The position numbers were made by a program, and so were the translations under genes. Positions 1 to 64,000 of a stretch of DNA of 64,000 nucleotides are shown piece by piece. The stretch's first letter is position 1. Each line of letters begins with the position of its first letter. This DNA is from an uncultured Chloroflexia bacterium. Its GTDB lineage: Bacteria; Chloroflexota; Limnocylindria; Limnocylindrales; CSP1-4. The stretch lies in NCBI GenBank assembly GCA_963827965.1, contig CAWHCW010000018.1:120454-184453 (forward strand). Reading direction: 5' to 3'. The notes beneath the pieces were generated by a model. The model was not told the DNA's origin. It worked only from the letters and a program-made list of their open reading frames with translations, and made no database searches.

Positions 1-2796
1 AGCCGCTCGAGGTCGAGCCGCCCGGGGCCGTCCGGGGGCGAGCCGCGAAGCGCGCGCAGCCGCCCCAGCGCCTCCACCTGCAGCTCACCGAGAGGATCCA
101 GGTAGGGCGCGCGGAGCTCGATGGAGCGCTGCAGGGCAGGAACGCCATCGAGCAGCGCCGCCTGGCCGGTGATCTGGAGGACCGCCCGCACCGATCGAGC
201 GTGCTCGTCCGCGATCCTCGCCGCGAGCCGGGCCCCGGCCGGGCCGGCCAGCCCCAGGTGTCGAGCGGTGATCCGGGGATCCGTGCGGGCCAGGGCGACC
301 TCCGCGTTCTGGACGAGGAGGCGCATGAACGGCCAGGTGCGGTGCAGCCGCTGCAGGCGGGCCATCCCGGCGGTTCCGTGACGACGCCCGAAGGCCTCGA
401 CCGCCGCGCCCAGGCCGTACCAGGCGGGCACGTTCGCCCGGATCTGCGTCCAGGCGAAGACCCACGGGATCGCCCGCAGCGACGCCAGCGTCGGCACTGC
501 CTCCGGCGCCGACCCGCCGCTCCCGCGGGCCGCCGGCCGCGAGCCGAGCCGGAGCCCGGCGATCTGCTCGATGGGCGTGGCGGCGAGGAAGACGGCCTCG
601 AGGTCCGGGTCGTCCCGCGCGAACGCCCGATAGGCGTCCCGGGCGTCGGCGGCCAGCTCGTCCATCAGGTCCGCGCCTTCGCCCGCCGCGGCGGCCACCG
701 ACCGGTCGTGCTCGGGCGTGGAGGCGAGCAGGGTCGCCGAGACGGTCTGCTCCAGCGCCCGCAGCGCCAGCTGCGGGTTCGCGTAGCGGGTGGCGATCAC
801 CTCGCCCTGCTCGGTCAGCTTCAGCCGCCCGGCCACGGAACCCGCCGGCGACGCCAGCACGGCCCGGTGCGTCGGCCCGCCGCCGCGCCCCAGCGCACCC
901 CCGCGGCCGTGGAAGATCGTCAGCTCCACGCCGGCCTCGCTGGCCGCCTCGACCAGCTGCTCCTGGGCCCGGTAGAGGAGCCAGTGCGCCGCGACGATAG
1001 CCCGACTCCTTGTTCGAGTCCGAGTAGCCGAGCATCACCTCCTGGCGATCGCCGCGCGTTCGCAGGTGGGCACGGTAGCCCGGCTCCCGGAAGAGGTCGG
1101 CCAGGATCGCCCGGGCGCCGGCGAGCGCGTCCGCCGACTCGAAGAGGGGCACGACGTCGAGGGCGGGCGTGCCGGGGGCGATCCCCGACGTCCGGGGCGC
1201 GGGGATCGAGCCGTCGGCGGCCCGCCGCGCCAGCTCCAGGACGTCGGCCACGTCCGCGGCGCGCTCCGTGAAGCTGATCACGTAGCGCCGGCAGGCGGCC
1301 TCGCCGAAGCGCCGCTGGGCGACCGCCATGGCTCGGAAGGTGGCCAGGACCTCGCCCGCCGTCACTCCCGGCGCGACCTCGCCATCGATGGCGGGCAGCG
1401 GACCGGCCAGGGCGGCGAGGGCGGCCCGGTGGACGGCGCTGTGCTGGCGGACTTCGAGCGAGGCAAGGTGGAAGCCGAACGTCTCCACCTGCCAGCGCAG
1501 GTCCTGCAGGGCCCCGTGCGCCACGCGGCCCAGGCCGTCCGCCGCGAGCGCCTCGCCCAGCTCGGCCAGCTCGGCGATCAGCGCTTCCGGCCGTTCGTAG
1601 CGGCCGCCCTGGGGACCCGGCAGGCCGGCCAGGTGGGCCCGGGTCCGGACGAGCCGCTCGGCGACGGCCCCCAGGCGGCGACGGTACGGCTCCCGCGGGA
1701 AGCGCTGCTCGAGCTCGCGCATCGTCTCCGACAGGTCGTCCGCGTCGTCGAGCAGGCGACGCGCGATCGAGCCGGGCGTCGACCCCCCGCGGGGCCGCGC
1801 CGCGACGTCGACCATGAGCCTCGCGGCGGCAGCGGCATAGCCGTGCAGGACGTGGTCGGCCTGGATCCGGAGCGCCTCCAGCGTGGTCTCCGCGGTGACG
1901 AACGGATGGCCGTCGCGGTCGCCGCCGATCCACGAGCCCCAGCGCAGGAAGGCCGGCACCCGCGGGGGCCGGGTCCCGGTGCGCCCCGCGTCGGGTGCGG
2001 CGGCCCCCGCCGGGAGGCCCGGCGAGATTCGGTCGAGGGCCGCGTCAAGCGCGCGGTAGAGGCGCGGCGTGGTGGTGAACAGGGTCGCGTCGAAGAAGAC
2101 CATCGCCGAGCGGACCTCGTCGAGCGGGCTGGGCCGCTCCCCGCGAAGGTCGGCCGTGCGCCACAGGACGGTGATCTCCTCGCGCAGGCGGCGGCGCAGG
2201 TCGGCGTCCCCGGCCGGGGTGAGGCGCGCGTCGTCGAGGTCGTCCAGGAGCCCGTAGACGCGGCGCAGGGCGAGGAGGACCGTCCGTCGGCGGGCCTCGG
2301 TGGGATGGGCGGTCAGGACCGGGGATACCCGCAGTGCCGCCAGCCTCGCCACGACGGCGTCGAGGTCATCGCCGGCGGCGGCAAGGCGCACGACGGCCGC
2401 CGCCACGGATCCCCGGGTCGGCGCCCCGGCCGCGGCGCGATCGCGACGCCCCAGGGCCCGCACGCGCTCCTTCTCCTCGGCCAGGTTGGCGAGCTGGAAG
2501 AAGGTGCTGAAGGCCCGGGCGAGCATCGCCAGGTCCGCCACGTCAAGCGCGGCGAGCGCCTCGTGGAGGTCGGACGCGCCGGGGGGTGCGTCGGGCCGGC
2601 GAAGGGCGATGGCGCGGCCCCGCACGCGCTCCACCAGGTCGAGCGCCGCGGGACCCTCCTGCTCGGCGATGACCTGGCCCAGGAGCGCTCCCAGCAGGCG
2701 CACCTCGCGGGCGAGCGGGTCCCGGGCACGGGCCGTCCCCACCGAGCGCGGCTCGGCGCGGATGGCCCGGTTCTCGGTGGCGCGGGGTCGCGTCAC
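1..2796 (-). pseudogene. ppc: phosphoenolpyruvate carboxylase; 3' end lies beyond the window start; one frame break near 1000
   Basis: The minus-strand translation has the PEPC signatures VLTAHPTE and MLGYSDSNKESGY (ORF 85..3096). One frame over it reads FHGRGGALGRGGGP (about 870-915) and continues to base 1. One extra base around 997-1003 separates the two frames. The GTG at 2796 overlaps the mutY stop (GTGA). Confidence 0.9.
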
Positions 2797-3740
2797 GCCG
2801 ACTCGGCGGAGCCCGCCAGGCGAGCCCGTCCCGCCGCGTCGAGCTCCACGATGCCATCGCGGGCGAGCCCCGCCAGGGCCCGGGCGACGGCCTCCTCCGA
2901 GTGGGCGCCGAGCGGCCCATCGACGGCGAGGGCGACCCCGGGCGCGGCGTCCCGCAGCCGGTCGACGAGCCGGCCGCGGAGCCAGCGCGTCGTCCGCTCG
3001 AAGGGGAGGATGGCTGCCCGGGCGGACGCTCTCCGGGGGGCCGCGGCGAGCGACGTCGCGGCCGGTGTCCTTGCCGGCGTCCGCGCCGTCCGGCACCAGG
3101 GCCGGGCCGGGCAGGATGGGCAGGACGGCCGAACCGGCCGGCAGATCGTGGCGCCGATGTCCATCAGGGCGTGCGTCCAGGTTCCCGGCCGACGGGCGTC
3201 AACCAGCGCGTCGGCGGCCGCCTGCACGGTCGCCGGCGCGACCGCGGACGGATCGGCCGCCAGGATCCGGCCGACGACGCGGCGGACGTTGACGTCGACC
3301 GCGCCGACCGGCAGCCCGAAGGCGATCGCCGCGACGGCGCGGGCGGTGTAGGGCCCCACTCCCGGGCAACGCCATGAGCGCCTCGACGTCGCCCGGAACG
3401 GCGCCGCCCGCCGCCGCGATCGCCACCGCGGTGCGATGGAGGCCCAGCGCGCGGCGGTTGTAGCCCAGGCCGCGCCAGGCGCGGATCGCATCCGCCGGGC
3501 TGGCAGCGGCCATCGCGGCCGGCGTGGGGAAGGCGGCCATGAAGGCCGGCCAGCGCTCCTCGACCCGGCTGACCTGGGTCTGCTGGGCCATCACCTCGGA
3601 GACGAGGACGCCCCACGGGTCCAGGTGGCCGTCCACCCGGAACTCGAGCTCGCGACCATGCTCCCCGAACCAGGCGAGGACGGCCCGGCGCAGGGCCCCC
3701 CGCCGGGCGGGGGCCGGCAGGACGGCAGGCGGCGGGGAGG
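2793..3740 (-). pseudogene. mutY: A/G-specific adenine DNA glycosylase; one frame break near 3365; start codon unresolved
   Basis: ORF 2793..3491 has the HhH-GPD motif LPGVGPYTARAVAAIAFG and the Fe-S loop C-x6-C-x2-C-x5-C (CRPVRPSCPSCPARPWC). The N-terminal half (VLVSEVMAQQTQV, WRGLGYNRRA) is in the frame of ORF 3199..4212. The junction reads cccggg-a-gtgggg, which is one extra base. Confidence 0.85.
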
Positions 3741-3844
3741 GCGGGGAGGGCTGCGGGGCGGGGCGACGCGACGCGTCGTGGCTGACCGGGCGGCACGCGG
3801 TGCCGAGGCGGGCGGGGCGGCCTGCGGCACCGGCGGTGACGGCA

Positions 3845-4326: not shown

Positions 4327-5073
4327 TCAGCCGTCGAGGCCGAGGAGGCGCGGCACGCTCGTTCCGGCCGGCCCCCCGACGACGTGGTCGAAGGCCCCCG
4401 CGTTGGCGGCGGGGTCGAGGTTCGCCAGCCACGTCTGCGCACCGTGGTGGCGGGCCAGCTGCACGTACCCCGCGGCGGGGTAGACGGTGCCGGACGTCCC
4501 GACGGCAAGGAAGACGAACGGGGCACCGGCCGCGTCGCGCATGAAGCGATCGACACGCTGCGTGGTGGCCGGGTCCAGCATCTCCCCGAACCAGACGATG
4601 TCCGGTCGCAGGAGCGCGCCACACGCGCAGCGCGGGAGCGGTGGCGCCACGGGGAAGGTGTCGTCGACAGAGGGCGGGCGCATGCAGCGGCTGCAACGCG
4701 TCCGCCACAGGGTCCCGTGGATCTCCACCAGGCGGACGCTCCCGGCCCGCGCGTGCAGCCCGTCGACGTTCTGGGTCGCCAGCAGGAAGCGGTCGCCGAG
4801 CCGCGCCTCCAGGGCCACCAGGGCCCGGTGGGCGTCATTCGGCTCCGCCGCCGCGGCGTCCCGGCGCCGGGCGGAGTAGAAGCGCCAGACCAGCTCGGGG
4901 TCGGCGGCGAAGCCCTCCGGCGAGGCGACCTGCTCCACGGGGTGTCCGTCCCACAGCCCGCCGGCGCCGCGGAACGTCGCCAGGCCGCTCTCCGCCGAGA
5001 TCCCGGCCCCGGTCAGGACCAGGACCCGCGTGCGCTCGTCGATGGGGATCCGGGCGTCCCGCGCCTCGCTCAT
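4327..5073 (-). CDS. cobB: NAD-dependent protein deacylase, Sir2 family
   Basis: The ORF is an intact 248 aa. It has GAGISAESGLATFRG, QNVDGLH and a Cys-x2-Cys...Cys-x-Cys zinc module (CSRC...CAC). Confidence 0.9.
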   Translation of the reverse strand: MSEARDARIPIDERTRVLVLTGAGISAESGLATFRGAGGLWDGHPVEQVASPEGFAADPELVWRFYSARRRDAAAAEPNDAHRALVALEARLGDRFLLATQNVDGLHARAGSVRLVEIHGTLWRTRCSRCMRPPSVDDTFPVAPPLPRCACGALLRPDIVWFGEMLDPATTQRVDRFMRDAAGAPFVFLAVGTSGTVYPAAGYVQLARHHGAQTWLANLDPAANAGAFDHVVGGPAGTSVPRLLGLDG

Positions 5074-5100
5074 GCCCCGGATCCCCGTCGCCCGCCTCCC

Positions 5101-6560
5101 TCAGACGCCCGTGTTGATCATCACGTGCTTGACGAACGTGTAGTCCTCGAGCGCGTACATGGAGCCGTCCTTGCCCCAGCCGGACTCCTTGACGCCGCCG
5201 TGCGGCGTCTCGGACGTCAGGGTGAAGTGCTCGTTGATCCAGACGGTGCCCGAACTCGAGCGCCTTGCGCGACCCGCATCGCCCGGCCGATGTCGCCGGT
5301 GAAGATCGACGAGGCGAGGCCGTACTTGCACGTCGTTCGCCCAGGCGACCGCCTGCTCCTCGTCGCTGAAGCGCTGGACGGTGACGACCGGGACCGAAGA
5401 CCTCGTCCTGGACGATCTCGCTCCTCTGGTCCGGGCCGGCGATGAGCGTCGGCTCGAAGTAGGCGCCGGCCCGGGCCGGGCGCGTCGCCGCCGACGACGA
5501 GCTCGCGCCCGGCGCCTCGAGGGCGCGGTCGACCATCCCCTCGACCTTGTCGGCCTGGGCCTGGGCGATGAGCGAGCCCATGTCGATGTCGTCGCCCTCG
5601 GCCGGATCGCCCCACTTGATCGTGCGGACCTGGTCGGCCAGCCTGGCCAGGAAGTTGTCGTAGACCTTCGGGCCCGGCGATGACGCGGCAGGCGGCGGTG
5701 CAGTCCTGGCCGGCGTTCCAGTAGCCGGCGGACTTGAGCGTCTCGGCCGCGAGGTCCAGGTCGGCGTCGTCGAAGACGATGACCGGGCGCCTTGCCGCCG
5801 AGCTCGAGGTGGAGCCGCTTGACCGTGTCCGGCCGCGATGCGGGCGATCTGCTTGCCGGTCACCGTGTCGCCGGTGATCGAGATCATCCGGACCTTCGGG
5901 TGGCCGACCAGCGAGGTCGCCCATCTCGCCGCCGGTGCCGGTGATGACGTTGAGGACGCCCGGCCGGCAGGATGCTCGGCGACGAGTCTCGGCGAAGGCG
6001 AGGGCCGTCAGCGGCGTGCGGGCGGACGGCTTGAGGACGACCGTGTTGCCGGTCGCGAGCGCCGGGCCCAGCTTCCAGGCGGCCATGTACAGCGGGTAGT
6101 TCCAGGGCGCGATGCGAGGCCACGACGCCGACCGGGTCCCGCCGGATGATCGAGGTGTGGCCGGCCGAGGTACTCGGTGACCGCCAGGCCCTCCATCACG
6201 CGGCAGGCGCCGGCGAAGAAGCGGAAGAGGTCGACGCAGACGGCCATCTCGTCGATGGCGGCGCCGAGCGGCTTGCCGGCGTTGCGCGCTCTCGAGGCGG
6301 CCGAGCTCGTCGGCGCGCGCCTCGAGGGCGTCGGCGATCTTGAGCAGGAGCGAGGCTGCGCGTCCTGCGGGGTCGTGTGCGCCCAGCTCGCGAAGGCGGT
6401 CGCGGCAGCGTCGACGGCGCGGTCCACGTCCTCCTGGCCGCTGGCGGGCACGCGTGGCGATCGACCTCGTCGCGTGGCCGGGTTCTCGACGTCGAGCGTC
6501 TCGCCGCTCGGCGGCGTCGACCCACGCGCCGCCGATGAACTGCTGGTACGTCTCGATCAT
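5101..6560 (-). pseudogene. NAD(P)-dependent aldehyde dehydrogenase with at least six frame breaks
   Basis: The N-terminus MIETYQQFIGGAWVDA starts at 6560. Conserved blocks are spread over all three minus frames: ARNAGKPLGAAIDEM, IAPWNYPLYMAAWKLGPALATGNTVVLKPS, VIVFDDADLD, YFEPTLI...EVFGP and the C-terminal ESGWGKDGSMYALEDYTFVKHVMINTGV ending at 5101. Confidence 0.85.
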
Positions 6561-8098: not shown

Positions 8099-9402
8099 TC
8101 AGTCGAGCGAGGACTCGACCAGGTCGTGCTCGCGCCGTGCCGCTCGCCCGGCCAGCTCGGCCAGCGTCGCGAGGAGCCGGTCGACCTCGTCGAACGTCGT
8201 GTAGTGGACCATGCCGAGCCGGACGACGCCGCCGGTCGCGGCCAGTCCCAGGTCCTCGATGAGCGTCGTGGCGTAGAAGTCGCCGTCCCAGGCGTAGATC
8301 CCCGCCGCCGCGAGCGCCTCCGCCAGGCCGCGCGGCGTCCAGCCGGCCAGCGTCACCGCGAACGTCGGCGTCCGCTCGCGCGACGCGGGCCGGGTCCGCC
8401 AGGCCGTGGACCGCCAGGCCGGGGATGGCGGCGAGCCCCGCCAGCACGCGGGCGGACAGGCGGCGCTCGTGGGCCTCGATCGCCCGCATGCCGGCGACCA
8501 GCCGGCCGCGTCGCGGCGTGCCCGCCGCGGCGCCGGCCTCGACGGCCCCGAACCGCTCGCCGACGTCGGCGAGGTACTCCACCGCGGCGAGCGTCCCGGC
8601 GATCCCCTCGTGGTTCTGGGTGCCGGTCTCCCAGCGGTCGGCGGCCGGCCGGACCTTGTAGGCCGGCAGGGACGTCGAGCAGCTCCCCCCGCCCCCACAG
8701 GATCCCGACGTGCGGCCCGAAGAACTTGTAGGCCGAGCAGGCCAGGAAGTCCGTCCCCAGGCTCGCCACGTCGAGCGGCCCGTGCGGCGCGTAGTGGACG
8801 GCGTCGACGAACGTCCAGGCCCCGACGGCGTGCGCCCGGCGCACGATCTCCGCGACCGGGTTGACCGTGCCCACCGCGTTGGAGGCGCAGCCGACGGCGA
8901 CCAGCCGCGTGCGCTCGGAGAGGGCGGCGTCCAGGGAGTCCAGGTCGAGCGTGCAGGCGGCCGGGTCGACCGCGATCTCGCGGACCGTCGCCCCCGCGTC
9001 GGCCGCGGCCGCGATCCACGGCGCCCGGTTCGCCTCGTGGTCGAGGCGCGAGATCACGACCTCGTCGCCGGGGCGCAGGACGCGGGCGATGGAGCGCGAG
9101 AGGGCGAAGGTGAGCGACGTCATGTTCTGGCCGAACTTCACCTCCGCCGGCGATGCGGCGCCCAGGAGGTCGGCCACGGCGGCGTGCGCCTCCTCGAGCG
9201 ATCGCGTCGCTGCGGACGCTCGTGGCGAAGGCGCCGTCGTGTTGGCGTTCGATTCGCGGTAGTAGTCGGCCACCGCGTCGATGACACGCTGCGGCACCTG
9301 CGTCCCGCCGGGCCCGTCGAGGAAGACCACCGGGCGGCCGTCCTGGCGGGCAGCCAGCGCGGGGAACTGCGGGCGAAGGAGGACGGGGTCGAAGCTTGGC
9401 AT
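8099..9402 (-). pseudogene. class-V aminotransferase / cysteine desulfurase-like protein with at least two frame breaks
   Basis: MPSFDPVLLRPQFPAL starts at 9402 in the frame of ORF 8353..10326. It runs through SNAVGTVNPV and FLACSAYKFFGPHVGILWGR (PLP-Lys region). It then continues in the frames of ORFs 7941..8582 and 8099..10198, ending ...VRLGMVHYTTFDEVDRLL. Confidence 0.75.
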
Positions 9403-9822
9403 CGGGCTCCTCGGGATCGGGCGGGCGGCGAGACCATTGTGGCCCGGCGCGCCGCAGGCCGCGAGGCGTCGCGGGTTGCGGGTCGCCGCGGGCCGCCGGC
9501 GCGTCGCGGGCCATGGTCGTCGGCTCACCGGGACCATGGTCCCCCGGACGCACGGGCCATAGCGCGAGGGCAACGGCAGCGGCGACCATGCGAGCGTGAC
9601 GCATCGAGCCAACCGCCAGCCCGCCACCCTCCCCCGACGCCGCGGCATGCGCGCGTCCTGGTTCCGCGGTCGCGCGCCCGAGCTCGACGCGGCGCACGAT
9701 CTCGAGGTCCCGGCCCAGGACGGCGGGACGACGCCAACGAACGCCGGCGCCGCCGGTCCGTCCGCGGGGTCCGTGGTGCCACCCGTGCGCCCGGCCTCCG
9801 GCAACCAGACCTTCTGAGCGAC

Positions 9823-10341: not shown

Positions 10342-10383
10342 GAGGCCTCCCCTCCATCGGGCGCTGCCCGCGTCCCTGACGAG

Positions 10384-52499: not shown

Positions 52500-52534
52500 G
52501 CGCTGCTCCTCCCGGCCGGCCGATCCGGCCTCGC

Positions 52535-54704
52535 TCAGGCTCGCCCGGCGGCGACCTCGTCGGCCCGGTTGCGGCCGGCGAGGAGGATCAGGTCCTCGTG
52601 CAGCTCGAACCAGACGCCGTGGTAGCTGTCGACGCGCGGCGAGGCGACGTAGCGGTTGTCGCCGCCCCGGGCCGCGGCGGCCGCGCGCTCGAGGCGCTCG
52701 CGGTAGGCGGCCAGGCGCGGCAGGCCCGCCACGAGCGGCGCGCAGCCAGGCGGAGGCGTCGGCGTGGAGGGCCGCCGAGGTCGGCCAGGACGCCGCGCGT
52801 CGTACGCCGCGTCGGAGTGGTCGTTGAAGGTCTGGGCGCCGTCGACCTCGCGCATCTGCCAGGCGGTGACGGTCTCCTTCATCCGGTGGTCGAGGGCCAG
52901 GAAGGCGTCGAGCGCGGCGGCGGCGTTGGCCGGCGCCCCAGCGCTCGGCGTCGGCGGCGATCTTCTCCCGCCCGACGGCCTTGCCGTCGGCGGTGAGGCG
53001 GAACGAGCCGGCGGCCATCTCGGCCAGGCCGTCGGCGACGAGCCGGTCCAGGATCTCGCTCATCTCGTCGGGCGTCGGCGAGGAGGGCGTCGCCGCGCCC
53101 TCCGGGGTGGCGTAGCCCTTCACGACCAGCGCCCGCAGGACGTCGTCGGCCGTGGCGACCGCCGGCTCGCACGGCGCCGGCGGTCGACGTCGCGCCGGCC
53201 GGCCCGGCGTCGCGCCGGCGCCGTCGGCGTCGCCGCCGTCGCCGAGCTCCAGGCCGAGCTCGCGGGCCCAGCCGAGGAGCGTCGCCGCCTCGGGGACGAC
53301 CGTCGCCGCGCCGGCGACCGCGCCGGCGAAGACCTCGCCGGTGGCGCCGTCGATCGTGATGACGTCCGCCACGGCCAGCGTCCGGCCGCCGATCGACGAC
53401 CGCGCCCGTCGGCGACCTCGACGCCGGCCGCCCCGACGACGGCCGGGATCCCCCAGCCGCGGGCGACGACGGCGGCGTGGCTGGCGAGGCCGCCCGTCGC
53501 GGTGAGGATCCCGGCCGCCCGGGCCATCCCGTGGACGTCGTCGGGCGACGTCTCGGCGCGGACGAGGATGACGGTCCGGCCGGCCTCGGCCGCCTCGACG
53601 GCGGCCTCCGGGGAGGTGACGATCTCGCCGCGCCGACGCCGGGCGAGGCCGGCAGGCCCGTGGCCAGGGCCGGGCCGACGTCGCCGCGCTCTGTCAGCGT
53701 CCGGGGCGGGTCGGCGAGGAGGCCGGCGACCCGCCGGACCGCGTCCTCCCGGGAGAGCGGGAAGTCCGGGTCCTCGGCCATGTCGACCGCGATCCGGAGC
53801 GCCGCCTGCGGGCTCCGCTTCCCGATCCGGCACTGGAGCATCCAGAGCCTCCCGTGCTCGATCGTGAACTCGATGTCGCAGAGGTCCCGGTGGTGGCGCT
53901 CCAGCCGCGTGGCGTACGCGCGGAGCTCGGCAGCCGATCTCCGGCATCCGCTCGTCGAGGACGGCGATCGGCTCGGTCTGGTGGGTGCCGGCCACGACGT
54001 CCTCGCCCTGGGCGTTGAACATGACGTCGCCGTACAGGACCGGCTCGCCGGTCGCCGGGTTGCGGGTGAACAGGACGCCCGTGCCGGAGTCGACGCTGCG
54101 GTTGCCGAAGACCATGGCCTGGACGGTGACCGCCGTCCCGAGGTCGTCGGGGATCCCCTCGTGCTGCCGGTAGGTGCGCGCCCGATCGCTGTTCCAGGAG
54201 CGGAAGACCGCCTCGACGGCTGCCCGCAGCTGCGCCCAGGGGTCCTCGGGAACCTCGTCGACGCCGACGACGTCGCGGAACATCGCCACGAACCGCCGGC
54301 GGCAGTTGGCGGCGAACTTCTCGCTCCCCGAGGACGCCGCGAGGCCGTCCGTCGTCGCCGTCGTTGAGCCCCAGGTTGAGGATCGTGTCCATCATCCCGG
54401 GCATCGAGACCGGGGCGCCGGACCGGACGCTGACGAGGAGCGGATTCGCCGGGTCGCCGAAGCCCTGGCCCACGAGGCGCTCGATCCGGGCCATGTGCTC
54501 CCGCAGCTCCGCGTCGAGGCCGTCCGGCCAGCCGTGGGCGAGGTACTCGCTGCAGGCGGCGGTCGTGATCGTGAAGGCGGGCGGCACGGGCAGGCCGAGC
54601 TCGACGGCCATGACGGCGAGGTTGGCGGCCTTGCCGCCCACGAGCCGCTTGACCTCCGCGAAGGGCAGGTCGTGGCGGTGGTCGCAGTCGTAGACGTAGG
54701 TCAC
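52535..54704 (-). pseudogene. PPDK-N-terminal-type phosphotransferase (ATP-grasp plus swivel-His domain) with an unrelated C-terminal region instead of the PEP/pyruvate TIM barrel; many frame breaks
   Basis: The product starts MTYVYD...VGGKAANLAVM. It continues with SVRSGAPVSMPGMMDTILNLGLND, VQAMVFGN and VLFTRNPATGE, then the swivel motif TATGGLASHAAVVARGWGIPAVVG. The last ~250 aa (ALVVKGYATPEG...YHGVWFELHEDLILLAG) have no PPDK-like motifs. Confidence 0.75.
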
Positions 54705-54759
54705 GTGCGGCTCCCTTGGGCGCCCGCGCCGGTCGCGCCGCGCGGGCGCGGCCCCTGGC

Positions 54760-55818
54760 TCAGGGCGCGACGATGATCTTGATCGCCCCGCTCGCGGGGT
54801 CGTTGAACGTGGCGATCGCCTGCTCGTAGTCGGCCAGCGCGAAGCGATGGGTCATGACCTCGCGGACGCGCATCCGGCCCTGCTCGACGAGCGGCATGAC
54901 GCGGCGCATCTCGCCCGCCGTCGCGCGGGAGCCGACCAGCTCGAGCTCGTCGAGGACGAGCCGCTGCATCGCGATCTCGACGCCCAGGGTCGGGATCCCG
55001 ACGGCGGCGCAGCGGCCGCCGCGGCGGAGCATGCCGAGCGCCCACTGGACGGTGACCGGGACGCCGGCGCACTCGAGGACGACGTCGGCGCCGAAGCCGC
55101 CGGTCATCGTCGCGCACGGTGGCGACCGGGTCGCCGTCGCCCGCGTCGACCGTCTCGAAGCCCATCGCGGCGGCCTTCGCCAGGCGGCCCGGGTTGCGCT
55201 CGACGAGGATCACGCGCGCCGCGCCCCGGATCCGGGCCGCGTCGCCGCCGAGGAGGCCGATCGCGCCGGCGCCGGTGATCGCGACCGTGTCGCCCGGGGC
55301 GACCTTGCCGCGGTTGGCGACGTGGAGGGCGATCGAGGCCGGGTCGATGACCGCGCCCTCGTCGAAGGAGAGGCCGTCGGGCAGCGGGAAGATCGTCTTG
55401 ACGCCCTGCACGACGTACGTCGCGTCGGCGCCCTGGACGTTGTGGCCGTACTGCTTGTGGAGGCCCGGCTTGCCGTAGTTCTCGCACAGGTTGTAGCGGC
55501 CCTCGACGCACTTCTGGCAGACGCCGCAGGCGTCGTGCGAGGTGCCGGCCACCCGGTCGCCGACCTTCCAGCCGTAGCGCTCGGCGCCCGGCCCGAGCGC
55601 CACGATCTCGCCGGCCCACTCGTGGCCCGGGATGAACGGGAAGGCCGGCGGCCAGAAGCCCGGGTAGTCGCCGCGGATCAGGTGGGCGTCCGTGCCGCAG
55701 ATCGAGACCGCGCGAACCCGCGCCAGCACCTCGTTCGGGCCCGGCACCGGGACCGGGACCTCCGGATCTCGATCCGGTTCGGCTCGAGGACGACGAGCGC
55801 CTGCATGGTCTCGGACAC
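54760..55818 (-). pseudogene. zinc-dependent alcohol/polyol dehydrogenase, copy 2 (inverted paralogue of 50632-51688); two frame breaks
   Basis: The GTG at 55818 follows GGAGG. The first 39 nt are identical to copy 1. Motifs are GHEWAGEI and CGVCQKCVEGRYNLC. Breaks lie near 55760-55765 (looks like GGG shortened to GG) and near 55108-55112 (extra base). Confidence 0.85.
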
Positions 55819-55839
55819 GGGACGGCCTCCTTCGGGGGA

Positions 55840-56732
55840 TCAGATGACGGCGACGGGGTCGACCATCGACCCGGTGGCGCCGCGGATCTTCACGGGCAGG
55901 GCGACGAAGAGGAACTCGTAGATGCGCTGGCGCGCCAGCTCCTCGAGGTCGAGGCTCTCCATGATGTAGACGCCGTTCTCGATGAGGAGCGGCGGTGTGG
56001 ACGGGCTGCGGGTTGCCGGTCGGCCCCGGGTCGGGGGCCGGCTGGACCTCGTAGGTCTCGGTGTCGGTGCCGGTCGCGACGACGCCGCGCTCCAGGAGCC
56101 AGCGGGCCGCGGAGATGTCGGGTCCCGGCGTCTTGTGGGCCGCCATCCTCTCGGCGTCGGGCCAGAGGCCCATGTAGCCGGTCCGGATGACGACCACGTC
56201 CCAGGGCTGGACCGTGACGCCCTGGGCGGCGCAGATCGCGTCCATCTCGGCGGCGTCGATCGGCGAGCCCTTGGGCAGGCAGTCCACGCCGCGGAAGGCC
56301 GGGGACGTCGAGGAGCACGCCGCGGGTGAAGAACGGCGGCATCTTGGAGGCGTCGCCGTGGATCGGGCCGAAGTCGGTCAGGTGCTCGTCGGCGTTGCCG
56401 CCGCCGTACCAGTGCATGTCGTCGTCGACGGTCATGTGGGCGAGGGCGTCCATGTGGGCGCCGGAGTGCGAGGTCGCCATGACGTACTCGGCCATGTAGC
56501 CGAGGCCGGCGTCGTTGATCGGGCCCCACGGCTGGGCGCCGGTCACCCGGATGCCGCGCGGCGTGCGGTAGTTGAGGACCTGGAACGGCGGGTGGCCGGG
56601 GAAGAGCGGCATGCCCGGGAAGCGGACGGCCGCCAGCGAGACCATCCGGCCCTCGCGGACGAGGCCGGCGGCCCTCACGACCTGCTCCGGCGGCAGCCCG
56701 CCGATCGGGCCGATGTCGGACGGAATCGTCAT
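55840..56732 (-). pseudogene. cyclase-family protein (arylformamidase-like); two frame breaks
   Basis: The product starts MTIPSD... with SHSGAHMDALAH (HxGxHxDxxxH type). It continues in ORF 54701..56287 (WDVVVIRTGY) and ORF 55840..56529 (LLIENGVYIMESLDLEEL). Confidence 0.75.
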
Positions 56733-56751
56733 CCCGCGGCCTCCTGGCGGC

Positions 56752-59003
56752 TCATGGCGTCGGCCGCTCCCGGAGCGCGCGCCAGACCCGCTCCGGCGTG
56801 AGCGGCAGGTCGCGGATCGCGACGCCGGTCGCGTCGCGGACGGCGGCGGCGACGGCCGGCGCGACGCACAGCAGCGCGCCCTCGCTCATCCCCTTCGAGC
56901 CGTACGGGCCCGGCCCGTCCTCGTTCTCGACGATGGCGCTGTGCAGCTCGAGCGGGAGGTCCATGCTCGTCGGGATCCGGTAGTCGATCGCGCCGAGGTT
57001 CCGGATCCGGCCCCTCTCGTCGTAGATGTAGTGCTCCATGAGCGTGTGGCCGAGGCCCTGGATCGCGGCGCCCTCGTCCTGCATCGCGGACCTGGAGCGG
57101 GTTGAGGGCCTTCCCGACGTCGGACACGGTCACGTGGCGGACGATCGTGATGTCGCCGGTCTCCTCGTCGACCGTCGGCCTCGATGGCCGTGCAGTTGAA
57201 CTCGAAGAAGGCCGGCGCTGCCGCCGAGCGGGTGGTCGGGCTCGGCGTCCTTGCGGACCTCGCCGTTGCCGATCAGCTCGCCGCCCAGCCGGCCGAGGCC
57301 GGGCTTCAGCACGTCGAGGACGGACAGCTCGCGGTCGGGCAGGCGGACGACGCCGCCGTCGACGCTGATCTGCGCCTCGTCGAGCGCCGTGGAGCCGGGC
57401 GGCCATCGCCCGCAGCTGCGCCTGGATCGCGCGGCACGCCGCAGCACCGCGTTGCCCATCAGGACGGTCGAGCGGCTGGCCGACGTCTGCTGGTCGTACG
57501 GGACGATCGCCGTGTCGCCCATGACGACCGTGACCCAGTCGAGCGGCGCGCCGAGCTCCTGCGCCGCGATCTGGGCGAAGACCGTCCGGGCGCCCTGGCC
57601 CATGTCCGACGTGCCGGCGAAGACGATGACGCTGCCGTCGGCGAGGAGCCGGACGGTCGAGTAGGACAGGCCGGTCGTCGGGCCGGACTTGATGCCGAGG
57701 GCGATCCCGCGGCCGTGGCCCGGCGGCAGCGGCGTGCCCCACCCGATCAGCTCGGCCGCCCGGCGGACGGTCTGCTCCCAGTCGCCGTCGGCAGGCGTGT
57801 CGAACGGGATGAAGGCCTCGCCCTTCCGGGCCAGGTTGCGCAGCCGGATCTCGAGGCGGTCGATCCCGAGCGCCCGGGCGGCCTCGTCGAGGTTCGACTC
57901 CACCGCCCAGTTGACCTGCGGGTTGCCGAAGCCGCGGAACGCCGTGGACGGCACCGTGTGGGACAGGACGCTCCGGGCGAGGATCCGGACGGCCGGCACG
58001 TCGGTACGGGCCCGGCGGCCGGGTAGCTGCCCTTGCCGACGACGCGGTCGGCGATGTCGGCGTAGGCCCCGATGAGGTAGTCGGCCGCGATGTCCTCGAA
58101 GGCGAGCGTGCCGTCGCGGTTGACGCCGGTCCGGACGCGGACCTCGCACGACGCGCGGCGGACCGCCTGGAACGTCTCCTCGAGGGTCAGGACGAGGCGC
58201 ACCGGCCGCCCGGCCCGCAGGGCCATGAACGCGACGAGCGGCTCGTACTTGGTGTGCTGCTTGCCGCCGAACCCGCCGCCCGGATCCGGGGCGAAGACGC
58301 GCACCTTCGAGAGCGGCAGGCCGAGGACCTTCGCGATCATCTTCTGGAGCCAGTTGGGGTGCTGGATCGTGCTCCAGACGGCGATCCCGTCGCCGTCCGG
58401 CGCGGCCATGAACGCGTGCGGCTCGATGGCGAAGTGGGTGACCATCGGGAAGGTGTAGCGTGTTCTCGACGACGAGGTCGGCCGTCGCGGCGTCGACGTC
58501 GCCCCAGCCGAAGCGGTGCTCGCGGAGGACGTTGGTCGTCGCGAGCGGATCGTTCGGGCGGAGCGCCGGATCCTGGACGAGCGGCGACGCCGGGTCGAGG
58601 GCCGCCGCCAGGGTGAAGACGGCGGGCAGCTCCTCGTACTCGACCCGGACGAGGCGGGCGGCCTCCTCGGCCGCGTCCTTCGTCTCGGCGGCGACGATCG
58701 CGACGGGCTCGCCGTGGTACTTCGTCTCGCCGACGGCGAGGACCGGCCGGTCCGCGAACTGCGGACCGAAGCGCGGGACCGGCTGCGGCAGGTCGGCCGC
58801 GGTCATGACGAGGCGGACGCCGGGGAGCGCGAGCGCCGCGCTCGCGTCGATCGCGATGATCCGGGCCCGCGCGCAGTCGAGCGTGACGAGCTTGGCCTCG
58901 AGGACGTCCGGCAGCTGGATGTCGGCCACGTACTCGGTGAGGCCGGTGACCCGGCCGACGCCGCCGACGCGGTTGGGCGAGCCGCCGATTCGCTCCGCTC
59001 TCA
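56752..59003 (-). pseudogene. molybdopterin-dependent hydroxylase large subunit (xanthine dehydrogenase/CoxL family); several frame breaks
   Basis: The ATG at 59003 overlaps the small-subunit stop. Motifs are GRVTGLTEYVADI, YHGEPVAIVAAET, DPGGGFGGKQH (ORF 57747..58445) and FRGFGNPQ. The C-terminus is GSKGMSEGALL (ORF 56752..57084). Confidence 0.85.
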
Positions 59004-59476
59004 TCGCTCGGCCCCCTCGGCGGCCGCGAGGACCGCCTCGGTGATCTGCTCGTAGCAGCCGCAGCGGCAGAGGTTGCCGGCCAGGCCCTCCTGGATCTCG
59101 GGCGACGGTGGGATGCGGGTTCCCGGCCAGGAGGGCGTGAGCCGCCACGAGCTGGCCGGGGATGCAGAAGCCGCACTGGACGGCGCCCTTGTCGAGGAAC
59201 GCCTGCTGGAGCGGGCTGAGGCGTCCCGTCGACGGCCAGCCCCTCGACCGTCGTGATGTCGGCGCCGTCGGCCTCGACCGCGAGCACCAGGCAGGAGTCG
59301 ACGGTCCGCCCGTCGACGATGACGGTGCAGGCGCCGCACTCGCCGACGAGGCAGCACTCCTTCGTGCCGGTGAGCCCGAGGTCGTCGCGCAGGACGTCGA
59401 GCAGGGTGTGGTGGGGGGCCACCTCGAGGGCGCGCCGGCGCCCGTTGACGGTGAGCTCGATCGGAATCGCGTTCAT
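59001..59476 (-). pseudogene. [2Fe-2S]-binding small subunit (CoxS family); frame breaks
   Basis: The product starts MNAIPIELTVNG. Motifs are GTKECCLVGECGACTV, CGFCIPG and NLCRCGCYEQI, spread across two or three frames. Confidence 0.85.
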
Positions 59477-59480
59477 CTCG

Positions 59481-60349
59481 TCACTCCCCCGCTGCCAGCC
59501 GCTCGATCGCGATCCGCAGCGCGCGCGGCGCCGAGGACGCGGCAGCATCGCCAGGCGGTACTCGGGGCTCGCCCGCATCGAGCGCGGCGACGGGCTGGCG
59601 TCCGCGAACATCTGCTCGAGGATCGCGGCCTTCGCGTCGTCCGGGGCGGCGGGATCGGCGAGGACGCCGCTCTCGTCGACGACGAGGACGGGCCGCGGGC
59701 CGACGCTGCCGTAGGCCAGCCGCGTCACCCCGGCCTCGTCCACGCCGCAGCACAGGGTGACCGACGCGAGGTCGTGGCCGCGGCGCCGCGTGCGGCGCAC
59801 GTGGACCGCGCCCATCCGCCGCGCCGGCACGGGCAGCTCGATCGCGCGTGACGAGCTCGCCGGGCGCCAGGGTCGTGACGCCGGAGCGGACGAAGAAGTC
59901 GTCGACCGGGATGCGCCGGAGCCCGGCGGGCCCCGCGGCCACGACCTCCGCCCCGTACACGAGGAGCGGCGGGGCGGTGTCGGCGGCCGGCGACGCGTTG
60001 CAGACGTTGCCGGCGAGCGTCGCCCGGTTCCGGATCTGGACCGAGCCGACGACCGCCGCGGCCTCGACGAGGGCCGGGAAGTAGCGCGCCACGAGCGGGT
60101 TCGACGGCGACGTCGGTCATGACCGTTCGCGGCGCCGATCGTGACCATCCCGCCGTCCTCGCGGATCGCGGGCCGCAGCTCGGCGATCCGCTTGAGGTCG
60201 ACCACGACGGCCGGGGTGAGCGTCCCGTCGCGGAGCCGGATGATCAGGTCGGTGCCGCCGGCCAGGACGCGCGCGTCCGGTCCGTGCGCCTCGAGCAGGG
60301 CGACGGCCTCGGCCAGCGTCGCCGGCCGCGCGTAGGCGAAGGTGTGCAT
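59481..60349 (-). pseudogene. FAD-binding medium subunit (CoxM family); frame breaks
   Basis: The product starts MHTFAYARPATLAEAVALL with VLAGGTDLIIRL. It continues with IRNRATLAGNVCNASPAADT (ORF 59481..60092). The CO dehydrogenase flavoprotein-type C-terminus is in a third frame. Confidence 0.8.
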
Positions 60350-60364
60350 CGCTCCTGCCCCGGG

Positions 60365-61256
60365 TCAGAGGATCTTGTCCACCTCGTCCAGGAGGACCTG
60401 GGGGGTGGCCGCGCGGATGAAGTAGAAGGGACGCTCGCAGAAGCGGGCCACGAAGGCGGCGCGCTTCCCGCGGAGCTCGTCGTTGTCGACGCATCGGCAT
60501 CGACGTGGCCGGGCGCGAGGAGCTCGTTGGAGCAGGAAGTAGTTCTGGAGCGAGTGGAGGAACTGGAACTGGCGCTCGAACGGGATCATCTCGTCCGTCG
60601 CAGGGTCGAAGTTGCCGTCGATCGCCGGGACGATGACGAGTCGATGTTCGGCGTGCCCTCGTACATGCCCCAGGTCGGCATCTCGCCGAAGAACTTCTCG
60701 ACGCCCCGCTCGGGCGCGGCCTTGTCGGCCCGCTCGGTGCCCTCGGTGCGCTTCTTGAGGAACGGTCGACTCGAGCCCATGACCGCCCGGCCGTCCTCGT
60801 CGATGACGGTCGTCTCGGTCGAGACCAGCAGGGCGCCGCGCCGGCAGGCCTCGATCTGGCCCATCGACTTGCCGTGGTTGGACTCGCCGCCGAGGAAGAG
60901 GATGGTCCGGCCGCGGTAGCGGACGGCGAGCGCGTGGAACGGATGCAGCCCGACGGCCTCCATCCGCAGCGCGAGCATCGGCGACGATCACCTTCTGGAT
61001 CGGGCCGGCCGGCCAGTCGCCGGTGAACGTGACGACCCGTCCGTCGTAGGAGACCGCACTTCTCGCCGTCCTGGCTCCAGACGATGTCGGGCTCGGCCAG
61101 CGTCACCTCGGGCGAGATGCGGACGTCGGCGAGCCGGTAGTTGAGGAAGCTCAGGTCGTCGAGGACGTGCTCGCGCGGCTCGCTGCCGTAGACGTCCACC
61201 CGCAGGCGGGCGGTCCCGGCCGACATCTCCTCGGACAGTTGCAGCTGGTCGTTCAT
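60365..61256 (-). pseudogene. P-loop (GGESNHGKS) protein of unknown function; several frame breaks
   Basis: The product starts MNDQLQLSEEMSAG at 61256. It continues with MLALRMEAVGLHPFHALAVRYRGRTILFLGGESNHGKSMGQIE (ORF 60586..60978) and a C-terminus ...FYFIRAATPQVLLDEVDKIL (ORF 60365..60991). Confidence 0.55.
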
Positions 61257-62058
61257 CGTGTCCTTTCGCGGGCTCGGCGGTGGTCGGTCAGGCGGTGCGC
61301 TCCGCCAGGGCCGACGGCAGGCCCGCCTCGCGGCGAGCCCGGCTGCTGACCCCAGGGCGGGAGGCGCCGGCGACGGCGCGTCGTCGACCGCCGGCGAGCC
61401 GGGCGCAGCCCAGAGGCTGGCCAGCATCGCCGCGGCGTCGGCGAAGTGGTCATGGAGGACCGCGGCCGCCACCTCCGGGTCGCGCCGCCGGAGGGCGGCG
61501 AGGATCGGGGCGTGCAGGTCGGCGATCCGACGCCGGTCGACGCCCGGCACGACGATCGTGATGTAGGTCCGCGAGAAGGGCTCGAGCGTCCGCCAGACCC
61601 GCTCCAGGGTGGCGTTGCCGGCGAGCTCGACGATCCGGCCGTGGAAGGCGGCGTCCGCCGTCGCCTCGGCGTAGTAGTCGCCGTCCTCGGCGGCCCGCTG
61701 CATCTCGTCCACGTAGCCGGCGAGCTCCGCGAGGTCCGTCGTCGGTCAGGCGGGGGATGGCCAGGCGGGCGCCGAGCGACTCCAGCTCGGCCCGGATCGC
61801 GAAGGCCTCCAGGAGCTCGTCCGCCGACGGGCGGCGGACGCGCGCTCCCCGGAAGGCGGCGGTCTCCACGACCCCGAGGGCCTCGAGGTCGCGCAGCGCC
61901 TCCCGGACCGGTGCCTGGCTCGTCCCGAGCTCCCGGGCGACCCGGGTCTCGACGATCCTGGCGCCCGGCGGGTAGCGACCGTCAAGGATCGCCTGGAGCA
62001 GGCGATCCTTGACCTGGTCGCTCAGGACGCTGCGCGAGATCGCGGCATCGCGAGTCAT
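61253..62058 (-). pseudogene. GntR-family (FadR/FCD-type) transcriptional regulator; at least one frame break; 3' end tentative
   Basis: The ATG is at 62058. The wHTH reads ETRVARELGTSQAPVREALRDLEALGVV. The FCD-like helices (FHGRIVELAGNATLERVWRTLEPF) are one frame over, in ORF 60117..61712. A stop at 61253 would give an ATGA overlap with the next gene. Confidence 0.7.
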
Positions 62059-62069
62059 GGAGGCCTCGG

Positions 62070-63854
62070 TCAGTCCTTCATCCCGACCGGGGCAGCACTC
62101 GGCGCGGCGGCGAGGATCTCGACCTCGCCGGTCGTGCCGTTGATGCGGATCCGATCGCCGTTCTTGATCTGCTCGGTCGCCACGGACGTCCCGACGACGG
62201 CCGGGATGCCGAACTCGCGGGAGAGGACGGCCGGGTGCGACACCGTGCCGCCGGCGTCGGTCACGAGACCGACGATCTTGGTGAAGAGGACGACCCAGGC
62301 CGGGTTCGTCATCTGGCAGACGAGGATGTCGCCGGCGCGGACGTCGTCGAACTGGTCCTCGCGGAGGACGACCCGGGCGATGCCCTCGACGACGCCCGGC
62401 GAGGCGCCGATGCCCGTTGATCTGGCCGGCGACGCGCGACTCCTTGCGGTAGAACTTGTCGGGGAAGCCCCACAGGTTCAGGTACGGGAAGGCGAGCTGG
62501 GTGGCCGTGCACGGTCCCGACCCACTCCTTCGGCCGGAACGTGTAGGCCTTCTCGCGCGCGGCCTTGCGCCTTCGCCACGATGCGCGCGGCCGTCCATCG
62601 CCGGCCGGGTTGCCCATGAAGACGCGCAGCTCGTTGTAGCGGAAGAAGACGACGTCGTCCGGGGCGTCGAGGGCGCCCGCCGCGACGAGCTTGCGGCCGA
62701 TCGCGAGGAGCACCAGGCGGACGTGGGCGTTGGCGCCCTGGTCGATGTAGAAGTGGTGGTCCGGGGTGAGCGGGGCCATCCGGAGGTTGATCTCGTTGGC
62801 CGCCCGCATCTCCTCGAGCGCCTCGCCCTCGAGGCCCTCGAGGATCTCCTTCGCCGCGGCGTCGATGTCGGCGGCCAGCGCGCCGATCGTCTTCGGGTAG
62901 TCGTAGTTGGTCTCGATGTAGCCGCGGACGAGCTCGATGACCGGCTCCATCTCCTCGACGCACGTTCGGGAAGATGAACTCGTGGCTCCAGACCGCGTGC
63001 CAGCCGTACTCCTTCTGGTACGGCACGACCCGCTCGTCGATGAAGCGCCGGCCGCGCTCGCTCGCCTTGAGGGCGCCGATGATCTCGTCGGCCGTGTCGG
63101 CCCGGAAGATCGGCGGCCAGCTCGGGGTCGGCCTTCGCCTCCTCCTTCATCTTCCAGAGGGCCTCGATCGAGTCCCAGTTGCGGTCCCTGGCCGAGTTCT
63201 GGAGGCGGCCGAGGAGCTCCTCGTCGATCTTGCCGTGGGTCTTCTCCATGACCGCCCGCAGGTTGAGCGTCGCGGACAGCTGGGCGAAGTTGAGCATCCA
63301 GTGGATCTTCCAGTGGCGATCGTGGATGTCGATCGCGTCCTCGAGCAGGCAGGCCAGCTCCATCAGGTTGAGCTCGTCCTGCTTGTCGAGCATCCCCTCG
63401 AGGTAGGCGAAGTTGCGGTCCATCTCGGGGACGAGGCGATCGCGCCACCAGTTCACGAACTGGAGCCCGTAGGTCGGCAGGACGGCGCCGAGGTACGGTG
63501 CCGATCTTGGCCGCGTACTCGGGGTCCTCGCGGCACGACCGGGCTGGTCGCGAAGCTGTACTCCTGCGCGTCGACCTTGAGGCCCGGCCTCGGCCGGGAT
63601 CGCCGCCGTGTAGAGGTAGCCGTTGACGTTCTTGGCGATCCAGTCGGTCGCGAACGGCGTGCCGAAGCGCCGGAACATGTGGTCGCAGCTCAGCCACCAG
63701 CCGCCGATGTCCTCGTACATCGGGCTCAGCGGGTGCGGGCAATGCAGGTCGTCGTAGACCCAGAAGAGGCAGCTTCTCGGTCTCCGACGTCCAGCTGATC
63801 GGGAACTTCTCGTCCCCGAGGAACTGGCCCGAGGACTTCTTCCTTGAGAGCCAC
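62070..63854 (-). pseudogene. PEP-utilising-enzyme family protein with C-terminal swivel-His domain (phenylphosphate-synthase PpsA-like architecture); many frame breaks
   Basis: The GTG at 63854 lies 6 nt after GGAGG. The N-terminal region is FPISWTSETEKL..FWVYDDLHCPHPLSPMYEDIGGWW. The C-terminal mobile domain is TDAGGTVSHPAVLSREFGIPAVVGT (ORF 62070..62312). Confidence 0.7.
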
Positions 63855-63904
63855 CGTGTGCCTCCAGCGTGCGTGCGTGGGGTCGCCCGGAGCGACCGTT
63901 TCCT

Positions 63905-64000
63905 AGCTCGCGGCCGCCGCGCGGGCGATCCGCTTGAAGCGCCGCATGTTCTCCGTGATCGCGACCTCCGTCGGGAGGCGCTCCATGCTCGAAGCGCCGA
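63905..64000 (-). CDS. 3' end of an unidentified CDS (partial, continues beyond the window)
   Basis: The minus-strand reading ...SMERLPTEVAITENMRRFKRIARAAAAS ends at the TAG at 63905-63907. The fragment is too short to name. Confidence 0.3.

Follow-up and report, generated by a model that had tools for sequence, protein, structure and literature searches.

Clustered single-base insertions in a Limnocylindrales MAG: probable consensus errors rather than gene decay

Many genes in the 64,000-nucleotide stretch of DNA analyzed here (the window) are interrupted by single extra bases, raising the question of whether these were acquired by the organism or introduced during the determination of its sequence. 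An earlier note on this DNA had favored a technical insertion-biased process, or a non-natural edit, over real pseudogenes. The genome that contains the window is a MAG from an uncultured member of the Limnocylindrales (Chloroflexota); it comprises 3.0 Mb on 19 contigs and has a completeness of 60.4%. The genome size is normal for the genus.

Frame breaks were scored with a reference-free coding-frame HMM in the whole 3.0-Mb genome, in the window, and in 80 kb of each relative. For 33.3 kb of the coding DNA of the window, an orthologue-guided count was obtained by frameshift-aware protein-to-DNA alignment. The references were protein pieces from frame-consistent stretches of congeners G001, G004, and G007, and all orthologue-guided events are relative to these. 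Raw nucleotide gap counts against relatives (78 to 86% identity) were noisy and were replaced by net-offset events and then by the frameshift-aware alignment.

Frame breaks in glnS and in the window

Aligned pairwise at the DNA level with its orthologues in G001 and G007, glnS has single-base insertions at positions 20715, 20751, 21174, 21402, 21452, 21563, 21583, 21824, 21922, and 22042. Frameshift-aware alignment to an intact 566-residue orthologue (P0001) revealed ten +1 events and no other event. This confirms that all ten breaks of the gene are single extra bases, as first read from the sequence, at positions within a few bases of those listed then. Comparison of orthologous DNA showed that none of the ten insertions is present in any of nine congeners and that the relatives are broken at other places, as expected of an artefact. 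At 566 residues, the read-through GlnRS equals in length over 100 intact orthologues (90 to 94% identity) and displays no mismatch at the 336 columns on which 31 orthologues all agree, the other members having 0 to 5. A dN/dS ratio well below 1 is already indicated for glnS. The closest GlnRS among 5.8 billion proteins was 94% identical, so the search brought up no second assembly of this species for comparison. Real massive pseudogenization, in which reductive decay would have fixed the insertions as mutations in the population, accounts for the presence of the breaks in the deposited sequence but not for ten frameshifts in a gene that retains every one of its 336 invariant residues.

The orthologue-guided count gave 134 frame breaks in the window (106 +1, 12 +2, and 16 -1), and the reference-free HMM gave 91 +1 and 21 -1 events. 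Thus, the insertion bias reported earlier holds, with about 88% of the breaks being extra bases in the orthologue-guided count and the HMM pointing in the same direction. The earlier total of about 40 junctions was a roughly three-fold undercount, and the two -1 cases regarded as clear were too few, since 16 and 21 were detected by the two methods. Both of these cases were recovered, the one near 49851 being placed at 49848 and the one near 55760 being placed at 55762 by DNA alignment. The absence of nonsense codons was nearly but not strictly correct. At most 4 stops were present in approximately 18,000 frame-restored codons, versus 134 frame breaks, and all 4 are located in the two most broken genes, in which break placement is uncertain by a few bases.

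Bacterial gene decay is usually deletion-biased. Mass pseudogenization, as in Mycobacterium leprae and recently host-restricted symbionts, is accompanied by stops, deletions, relaxed selection, and the loss of conserved residues. The source genome resembles this type of decay in the large share of interrupted genes but differs from it in every other respect: stop codons are nearly absent, no large deletion was seen, product lengths equal those of intact orthologues, conserved residues are kept, and the bias is toward insertions. Nonsense codons, deletions, and relaxed constraint, which decay should have left beside the frameshifts, were therefore not found. Purifying selection was undiminished once the frame had been restored, as an artefact would predict.

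Table 1. Features of the window, with the position and sign of frame breaks
Feature	Coordinates	Strand	Breaks and evidence
ppc (PEP carboxylase)	1..2801	-	One +1 at ~996; HMM and G007-guided alignment
MutY-like HhH-GPD glycosylase	2802..3724	-	~3042 (+1), ~3079 (+2), ~3366 (+1)
cobB (Sir2 deacetylase)	4333..5092	-	0 breaks; G001- and G007-guided alignments; Pfam SIR2
Aldehyde dehydrogenase	5104..6348	-	11 +1 within 5248-6287; HMM; exact insertions versus G001 and G007; stitched product matches Pfam Aldedh 57-461 in a single stretch (E 2e-126)
Aminotransferase-like gene	8102..9402	-	+1 at 8378 and 8673; compensating +1/-1 pair at 9199/9242; G001- and G007-guided alignments agree
Clean block	9820..17263	.	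0 breaks; GlcNAc-utilisation-type genes and two ABC permeases; HMM
Sugar-binding protein (SBP_bac_1)	17400..18805	-	+1 at 17838; probable second +1 near 18606, from ORF frame arithmetic
glnS (glutaminyl-tRNA synthetase)	20416..22126	+	10 single-base insertions; Pfam pieces in three frames
tRNA-Gln(CTG)	22207..22281	+	Intact, 3' of glnS; ARAGORN; stretch kept in all relatives
Dirty patch, ~11 kb	28541..39785	-	At least 70 breaks; HMM and G004-guided alignment; cupredoxin/multicopper-oxidase-like genes and giant surface-protein gene (33825-39412, ~50 breaks)
Clean stretch, 5.5 kb	44358..49844	.	HMM; 0 events in G001-guided alignments
MBL-fold gene	49619..50492	+	-1 at 49848, +1 at 50224
Zn-ADH copy 1	50493..51677	+	One +1 at 51319
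SDR	51732..52542	-	0 breaks; G001-guided alignment, 271/273 aa; Pfam adh_short
Dirty patch, ~11 kb	52543..63842	-	~50 breaks; PPDK-like gene (10 breaks), cyclase-like gene, Mo-hydroxylase subunits, GntR/FCD regulator (+1 at 61737), PEP-utilising enzyme (9 x +1)

Distribution of the breaks along the genome and among congeners

The HMM detected 2,556 breaks in the genome (2,072 +1 and 484 -1, roughly 4:1), corresponding to 0.85 per kb, on all 19 contigs. Of 2,442 gene-like runs, 1,105 (45%) were broken, a proportion that is near the 40% of markers missing and fits the ~60% completeness of a full-sized genome in 19 contigs. Breaks throughout the genome combined with depressed completeness are expected of an artefact, whereas decay would imply that 45% of the genes are dead in a genome that has kept the normal size for its genus.

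Break density was low in most of the congeners analyzed with the HMM: 0.03 per kb in G005, 0.05 in G008, 0.12 in G007, 0.16 in G001 (13 +1 and no -1), 0.16 in G010, and 0.24 in G004. G002, which belongs to a different species of the same genus, had 0.94 breaks per kb (61 +1 and 14 -1) and a completeness of 62%. Breaks are thus 4 to 30 times less frequent in the cleaner congeners than in the source genome or G002. Break density tracks the assembly rather than the lineage, and decay offers no ready reason for a different species to match the source genome in both density and bias when its sister species do not. Completeness and break density are imperfectly coupled, since G008 and G010 are 75 to 76% complete despite few breaks. 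No break site of the window was common to G001, G004, G007, G008, or other congeners. The relatives have private breaks of their own elsewhere, including one in glnS of G001 and several in an ABC permease of G008 that is clean in the source genome.

The earlier note had described break density as very uneven, which it is, and as clustered gene by gene, which it is not, the clusters being regional. In 2-kb bins across the genome, the variance-to-mean ratio was 2.8, with 458 empty bins versus 218 expected from a Poisson distribution, and the coefficient of variation (CV) of the gaps between breaks was 1.71. The break densities of adjacent genes were correlated (Spearman 0.30). Autocorrelation of the breaks was 0.34 at 0.5 kb, extended to ~5 kb, and had faded by 7.5 to 10 kb. 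A two-state model (log-likelihood gain of 589) assigned 22% of the genome to a dirty state, with 2.6 breaks per kb in patches of ~2.9 kb, and 78% to a clean state, with 0.35 breaks per kb in stretches of ~10 kb. Within the window, the segment from 9823 to 17352, initially reported as free of breaks, was also free of them according to the HMM and the G008 and G004 orthologues; the alignments guided by these two genomes showed a single event between 10486 and 17253, where a G008 piece that is itself broken comes to its edge. Orthologue-guided alignment likewise bore out the observation that cobB and the SDR gene are intact beside riddled neighbors. The G004 orthologues spanning 30986-40087, mostly within the first dirty patch, are uninterrupted (452, 463, 2,352, and 185 residues).

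Two candidate causes of the patches were considered. GC content, which the earlier note had proposed to compare with break density, showed a Spearman correlation of 0.08 with it in 2-kb bins, which is too weak to account for the patches. Contig ends were unconvincing, with 1.21 breaks per kb in the terminal 1 kb versus 0.85 overall.

The rpoB and rpoC genes are intact and located inside a 17-kb clean stretch, which on its own could suggest that essential genes are spared, as decay would have it. However, the longest clean stretch (26.8 kb) contains ordinary accessory genes and an integrase, and single-copy glnS is broken ten times. Gene function explains little of the break pattern. Together with the preserved residues of GlnRS and the scarcity of stops, these observations make real pseudogenization very improbable. 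The patches disregard gene borders and function, as would result from locally poor consensus due to low depth or to heterogeneity that could not be polished.

A non-natural edit made to the record once assembled, whether deliberate or accidental, would suit a set of events that are almost all of one type. The suggestion is unsupported, since the pattern fills the 3-Mb genome, with ~2,550 events over all 19 contigs, and the same bias recurs in publicly available genomes of congeners; the patch structure at the kilobase scale and the non-uniform sequence context described below also argue against it. We consider such editing to have almost no likelihood.

Sequence context of the inserted bases

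The position of 44 insertions could be determined exactly. The inserted base can be G, C, A, or T but is mostly G or C. A new net CpG was created at 18 of the 44 sites (null expectation, 14%; P = 1.5e-5) and a new GpC at 15 (null, 17%; P = 0.007). Homopolymers were extended at just 15 sites (null, 52.5%; P = 0.016). Insertions that favor CpG and GpC and avoid homopolymers therefore indicate a systematic error of consensus building or base calling.

Programmed recoding was considered as an alternative, with genuine extra bases skipped by +1 ribosomal frameshifting or four-base decoding. Each break does require only a small frame correction, and the protein sequence resumes perfectly past every shift. 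In glass-sponge mitochondria, +1 frameshifting or four-base decoding occurs at specific rare codons, in a single codon context that is conserved across relatives and independent assemblies. The source genome is similar in having single extra bases in otherwise intact genes but differs in that the sites have neither a common context nor conservation. No position within 10 nucleotides of the 44 insertions exceeded 0.15 bit, C followed by GG on the coding strand was present at just 7 of the 44 sites, and the inserted base can be any of the four. Sites conserved in relatives or independent assemblies, which recoding would predict, were not found, none being shared with any congener. In addition, -1 and +2 events are also present, and break density is patchy and not linked to particular codons. 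Recoding is accordingly given a negligible probability.

A further reading, judged unlikely, takes the insertions as technical but non-random. Their sequence context and their patchiness at the kilobase scale may then both mirror a genuine feature of the DNA, for instance cytosine modification that is dense or heterogeneous in some portions of Limnocylindrales genomes and leads the base-caller or polisher astray. If so, the distribution of errors would indirectly chart an epigenetic or strain-heterogeneity landscape.

Probable origin of the errors and consequences for use of the genome

We conclude with high confidence that the extra bases arose as consensus errors when a metagenome was assembled from long reads only, and are not mutations in the organism. 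The preference for a technical insertion-biased process over pseudogenes is supported by the private character of the breaks, their spread over the genome, their presence in single-copy housekeeping genes, the absence of relaxed selection, the few stops, the likeness to G002, and the context signature. Where consensus is locally poor, single spurious bases would survive, mostly G or C and tending to make CpG or GpC, with deletions approximately seven times rarer than insertions and substitutions barely detectable. Consensus quality would fluctuate along contigs at the scale of long reads (1 to 10 kb), thereby producing kilobase-sized error patches irrespective of gene borders. Short patches could coincide with a single gene, such as glnS, and long ones could riddle about a dozen adjacent genes. 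The platform was probably Nanopore or PacBio, and the patches may be caused by low local depth, by strain heterogeneity defeating polishing, or by DNA modification.

Indels in long-read metagenome data of low coverage or local heterogeneity have been described as a source of frameshifts (proovframe preprint, 10.1101/2021.08.23.457338). In long-read-only bacterial and metagenome assemblies, indel errors break up gene calls and depress estimates of completeness (10.1101/2021.08.23.457338; Sereika et al. 2022, PMC9262707). The source genome conforms to these known errors, which worsen at low coverage or in heterogeneous populations, in that its single-base indels break conserved genes, occur throughout the genome, and are confined to this assembly, and in that its marker completeness is low despite long contigs. 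Unlike in the classical homopolymer-length problem of Nanopore sequencing, the errors are insertion-biased (~7:1), avoid homopolymers, and favor CpG and GpC. The dominance of insertions resembles the raw PacBio CLR spectrum of 8% insertions, 3% deletions, and 2% substitutions (10.1101/2021.08.23.457338).

These results serve as a warning, since this genome represents its species in the searched genome set and yet contains ~2,500 spurious frame breaks. In the dirty patches, gene calls, claims of split genes or pseudogenes, completeness estimates, and protein-database entries are unreliable, and the same caution extends to at least one further genome of the genus, G002. Frameshift-aware translation is advised for reading the genes of the source genome. 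The context signature may be of use in developing base-callers and polishers suited to very GC-rich genomes. The clean stretches seem to be reliable, and other observations on this genome are best compared with the patch map. The rRNA operon, located on contig C19 and examined for errors in non-coding genes, is essentially clean, with three private inserted columns, none of them in the 16S gene.

Read-through of glnS

Pieces of the tRNA-synt_1c and anticodon-binding domains (Pfam) are spread over the three plus-strand frames of glnS, the glutaminyl-tRNA synthetase gene. When the gene was compared at the DNA level, one pair at a time, with its counterparts in two congeners, G001 (91% identity) and G007 (88% identity), ten one-base insertions came to light in it (see the table). 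We also wrote a frameshift-aware protein-to-DNA dynamic-programming aligner, which, guided by an intact 566-residue orthologue, aligned all 566 of its residues (94% identity) by means of exactly ten +1 events (one extra base) and no event of any other kind. Both analyses agree with an earlier note on this DNA, which had counted ten of ten single-base breaks in glnS at positions right to within a few bases. Skipping the ten bases led to a product of 566 residues, the length of more than 100 intact orthologues at 90 to 94% identity. The read-through enzyme matched every one of the 336 columns that do not vary among 31 orthologues, the other members having 0 to 5 mismatches there. A gene dead for long enough to acquire ten frameshifts should have lost many invariant residues; thus, this result speaks against decay. 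The glnS locus of G001 (L012/L013) contains a private +1 at a different site. As judged from GlnRS homologues, the collections searched do not include this species in an independent assembly. The source names of the closest homologues put the genome in Limnocylindrales (Chloroflexota). A tRNA-Gln(CTG) gene is located ~80 nt 3' of glnS. This pairing with the cognate tRNA is conserved across the genus, and the tRNA stretch is 87% identical to genomes of another family of the same order.

Features discussed in the text (window positions unless a contig is named)
Feature	Position	Strand	Remark
Whole window	G000:C18:120454-184453
Dirty patch	5.2-6.3 kb
Clean block	10486-17253
glnS	20416-22126	+
One-base insertions in glnS	20715, 20751, 21174, 21402, 21452, 21563, 21583, 21824, 21922, 22042
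Dirty patch	20.7-22.0 kb
tRNA-Gln(CTG)	22207-22281
Accessory region	28000-40000	-	Every gene on the minus strand
Dirty patch	28.5-39.8 kb		About a dozen genes
Run of insertions	31899-31953		Three or four +1 inside ~55 nt
Giant gene	33825-39412	-
Zn-dependent alcohol dehydrogenase	50493-51677	+
Run of insertions	52739-52792		Three or four +1 inside ~55 nt
Dirty patch	52.7-63.8 kb		About a dozen genes
Zn-dependent alcohol dehydrogenase	54769-55763	-
rRNA operon	G000:C19:1-3927	-

Number and signature of the frame breaks

A reference-free coding-frame model (seven-state dicodon HMM), trained on the long ORFs of the genome under study (G000), correctly located nine of the ten glnS events, two events 20 nt apart being merged. 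Over the whole window, its calls amounted to 112 frame breaks (91 +1 and 21 -1). In the part alignable to G001, 56 of 57 HMM switches (54 frame breaks and three gene boundaries) coincided with a net indel whose length in the DNA alignment is not divisible by three. In parallel, orthologous protein pieces of G001, G007, G004, and G008 were passed through the frameshift-aware aligner. Those of G001, G007, and G004 covered 33.3 kb of coding DNA in the window, whereas G008 and further G004 pieces were used to check the clean block. The 33.3 kb contained 134 events (106 +1, 12 +2, and 16 -1), or 72 +1, 6 +2, and 6 -1 without one giant, more divergent gene. The bias toward extra bases reported previously was therefore recovered (~88% of the orthologue-guided events, with the HMM pointing in the same direction). 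The previous total of about 40 breaks was a roughly threefold undercount, and both methods found more -1 cases than the two recognized then, one of which, given at 49851, was located at 49848.

Stitching across the breaks led to ordinary proteins (HhH-GPD, SIR2, SDR, PPDK_N plus PEP-utilizers, GntR/FCD, Zn-ADH, HisKA_3, and SBP_bac_1), and the stitched aldehyde dehydrogenase matched Aldedh in a single stretch (E 2e-126). All orthologue-guided alignments together left four in-frame stops in ~18,000 codons, all within the two most broken genes, where the placement of breaks is uncertain. At the two runs of insertions, the sum restores or nearly restores the frame, and the runs would be translated as short scrambled peptide segments. 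The two alcohol dehydrogenase paralogues are inverted, flank the SDR and PPDK-like genes, and are similar enough for G001 pieces to cross-match both.

To look for signs of recoding, the surroundings of 44 exactly placed insertions were compared; no conserved position was found within 10 nt on either side (≤0.15 bit). The inserted base, scored at 42 of these sites, was G (19), C (15), A (5), or T (3). Relative to bases drawn from the genomic composition and inserted at random, net CpG was created by 18/44 insertions (41% versus 14%, p 1.5e-5) and destroyed by none, GpC was created by 15/44 (34% versus 17%, p 0.007), and a homopolymer was extended by only 15/44 (34% versus 52.5%, p 0.016). Such a context signature, being systematic, favors base calling or consensus building over mutation as the source. 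The proovframe preprint (10.1101/2021.08.23.457338) quotes error rates of ~8% for insertions, 3% for deletions, and 2% for substitutions in raw PacBio CLR reads, and it names low coverage and localized population heterogeneity as reasons why some regions cannot be polished. Nanopore and PacBio are both compatible with the observed pattern.

Regional clustering

Genome-wide (2.99 Mb, 19 contigs, 73% GC), the HMM detected 2,556 breaks (2,072 +1 and 484 -1) at a density of 0.85/kb, and every contig was affected. Two +1 events merged into one, or a misclassified gene overlap of 4 nt, underlie many of the -1 calls, so that the true +1 bias is probably stronger than these counts. Breaks affected 1,105 of 2,442 gene-like runs (45%), which accounts for the ~40% of markers missing from G000 (completeness, 60.4%), although its size is normal for the genus and its contigs are long.

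Per 2-kb coding bin, the variance/mean ratio of breaks was 2.8, with 458 empty bins versus 218 expected. The gaps between breaks had a CV of 1.71, with clean stretches of up to 26.8 kb versus ~9 kb expected. Autocorrelation decreased from 0.34 at 0.5 kb to 0.15 at 2 kb and 0.05 at 5 kb and was nil by 10 kb. A two-state Poisson model (22% of the genome at 2.6 breaks/kb in patches of ~2.9 kb and 78% at 0.35/kb in stretches of ~10 kb) gained 589 log-likelihood units over one rate, and the break densities of neighboring genes were correlated (Spearman 0.30, p 7e-53). The clustering is therefore regional: the uneven density described earlier holds, but not its gene-by-gene character, and the gene-specific look of glnS comes only from a short patch that happens to coincide with the gene. 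Patch sizes are comparable to those of long reads, and the clustering, which the earlier note had left unexplained, is probably a kilobase-scale patchiness of consensus quality. GC content, proposed as a possible correlate, explained almost nothing (rho 0.08, 2-kb bins), and contig ends were not clearly worse than the rest.

Genes scored as intact in the earlier note remained so when further breaks were sought there. Zero events were found in cobB, in the SDR gene, and, against G008 and G004 orthologues, in the clean block, except for one at the margin of a G008 piece with breaks of its own. In the genome as a whole, the longest clean stretch (26.8 kb) contains ordinary accessory genes and an integrase, indicating that the pattern is not explained by what the genes do; another clean stretch, of 17 kb, happens to include rpoB and rpoC.

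Comparison with congeners

Seven congeners, sampled at 80 kb each, were run through the same HMM as controls. Densities were 0.03 breaks/kb in G005, 0.05 in G008, 0.12 in G007, 0.16 in both G001 (13 +1 and 0 -1) and G010, 0.24 in G004, and 0.94 in G002 (61 +1 and 14 -1; completeness, 62%). The lowest values set a false-positive floor of ≤0.05/kb. Break density tracks individual assemblies rather than lineage. None of the compared congeners shared an insertion site with the window. G008 (L057, 5357-11275) has several private breaks in an ABC permease gene, which is clean in the window, and in neighboring genes. Conversely, G004 orthologues over 30986-40087, most of the worst patch of the window, are uninterrupted ORFs (452, 463, 2352, and 185 residues). 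Private breaks in other public genomes of the genus are mostly +1.

Together, the private breaks, the conserved GlnRS columns, the scarcity of stops, the congener controls, and the context signature make it very likely that the frame breaks are an assembly artifact resulting from technical error, as the earlier note had favored. The non-natural edit that it had considered besides is not supported. The biological interest of the breaks is low, and their practical import is a warning for users of the G000 and G002 genomes.

The giant gene contains ~50 frame breaks, yet a 1060-residue false ORF persists in one frame. Its orthologue on contig C3 of G004 (L045) is a single 2352-residue ORF, whose giant product, a secreted or surface protein, contains beta-helix-like repeats and numerous segments rich in Asp/Gly/Thr. 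The surrounding accessory region, present in 1 of 12 relatives searched (G004), has a GC skew that is strongly positive (0.10-0.13) and an AT skew that is negative. The rRNA operon is essentially devoid of private indels. It is the sole one found in G000 and is located at a contig start, with the order 16S, tRNA, tRNA, 23S and the contig ending within 23S.
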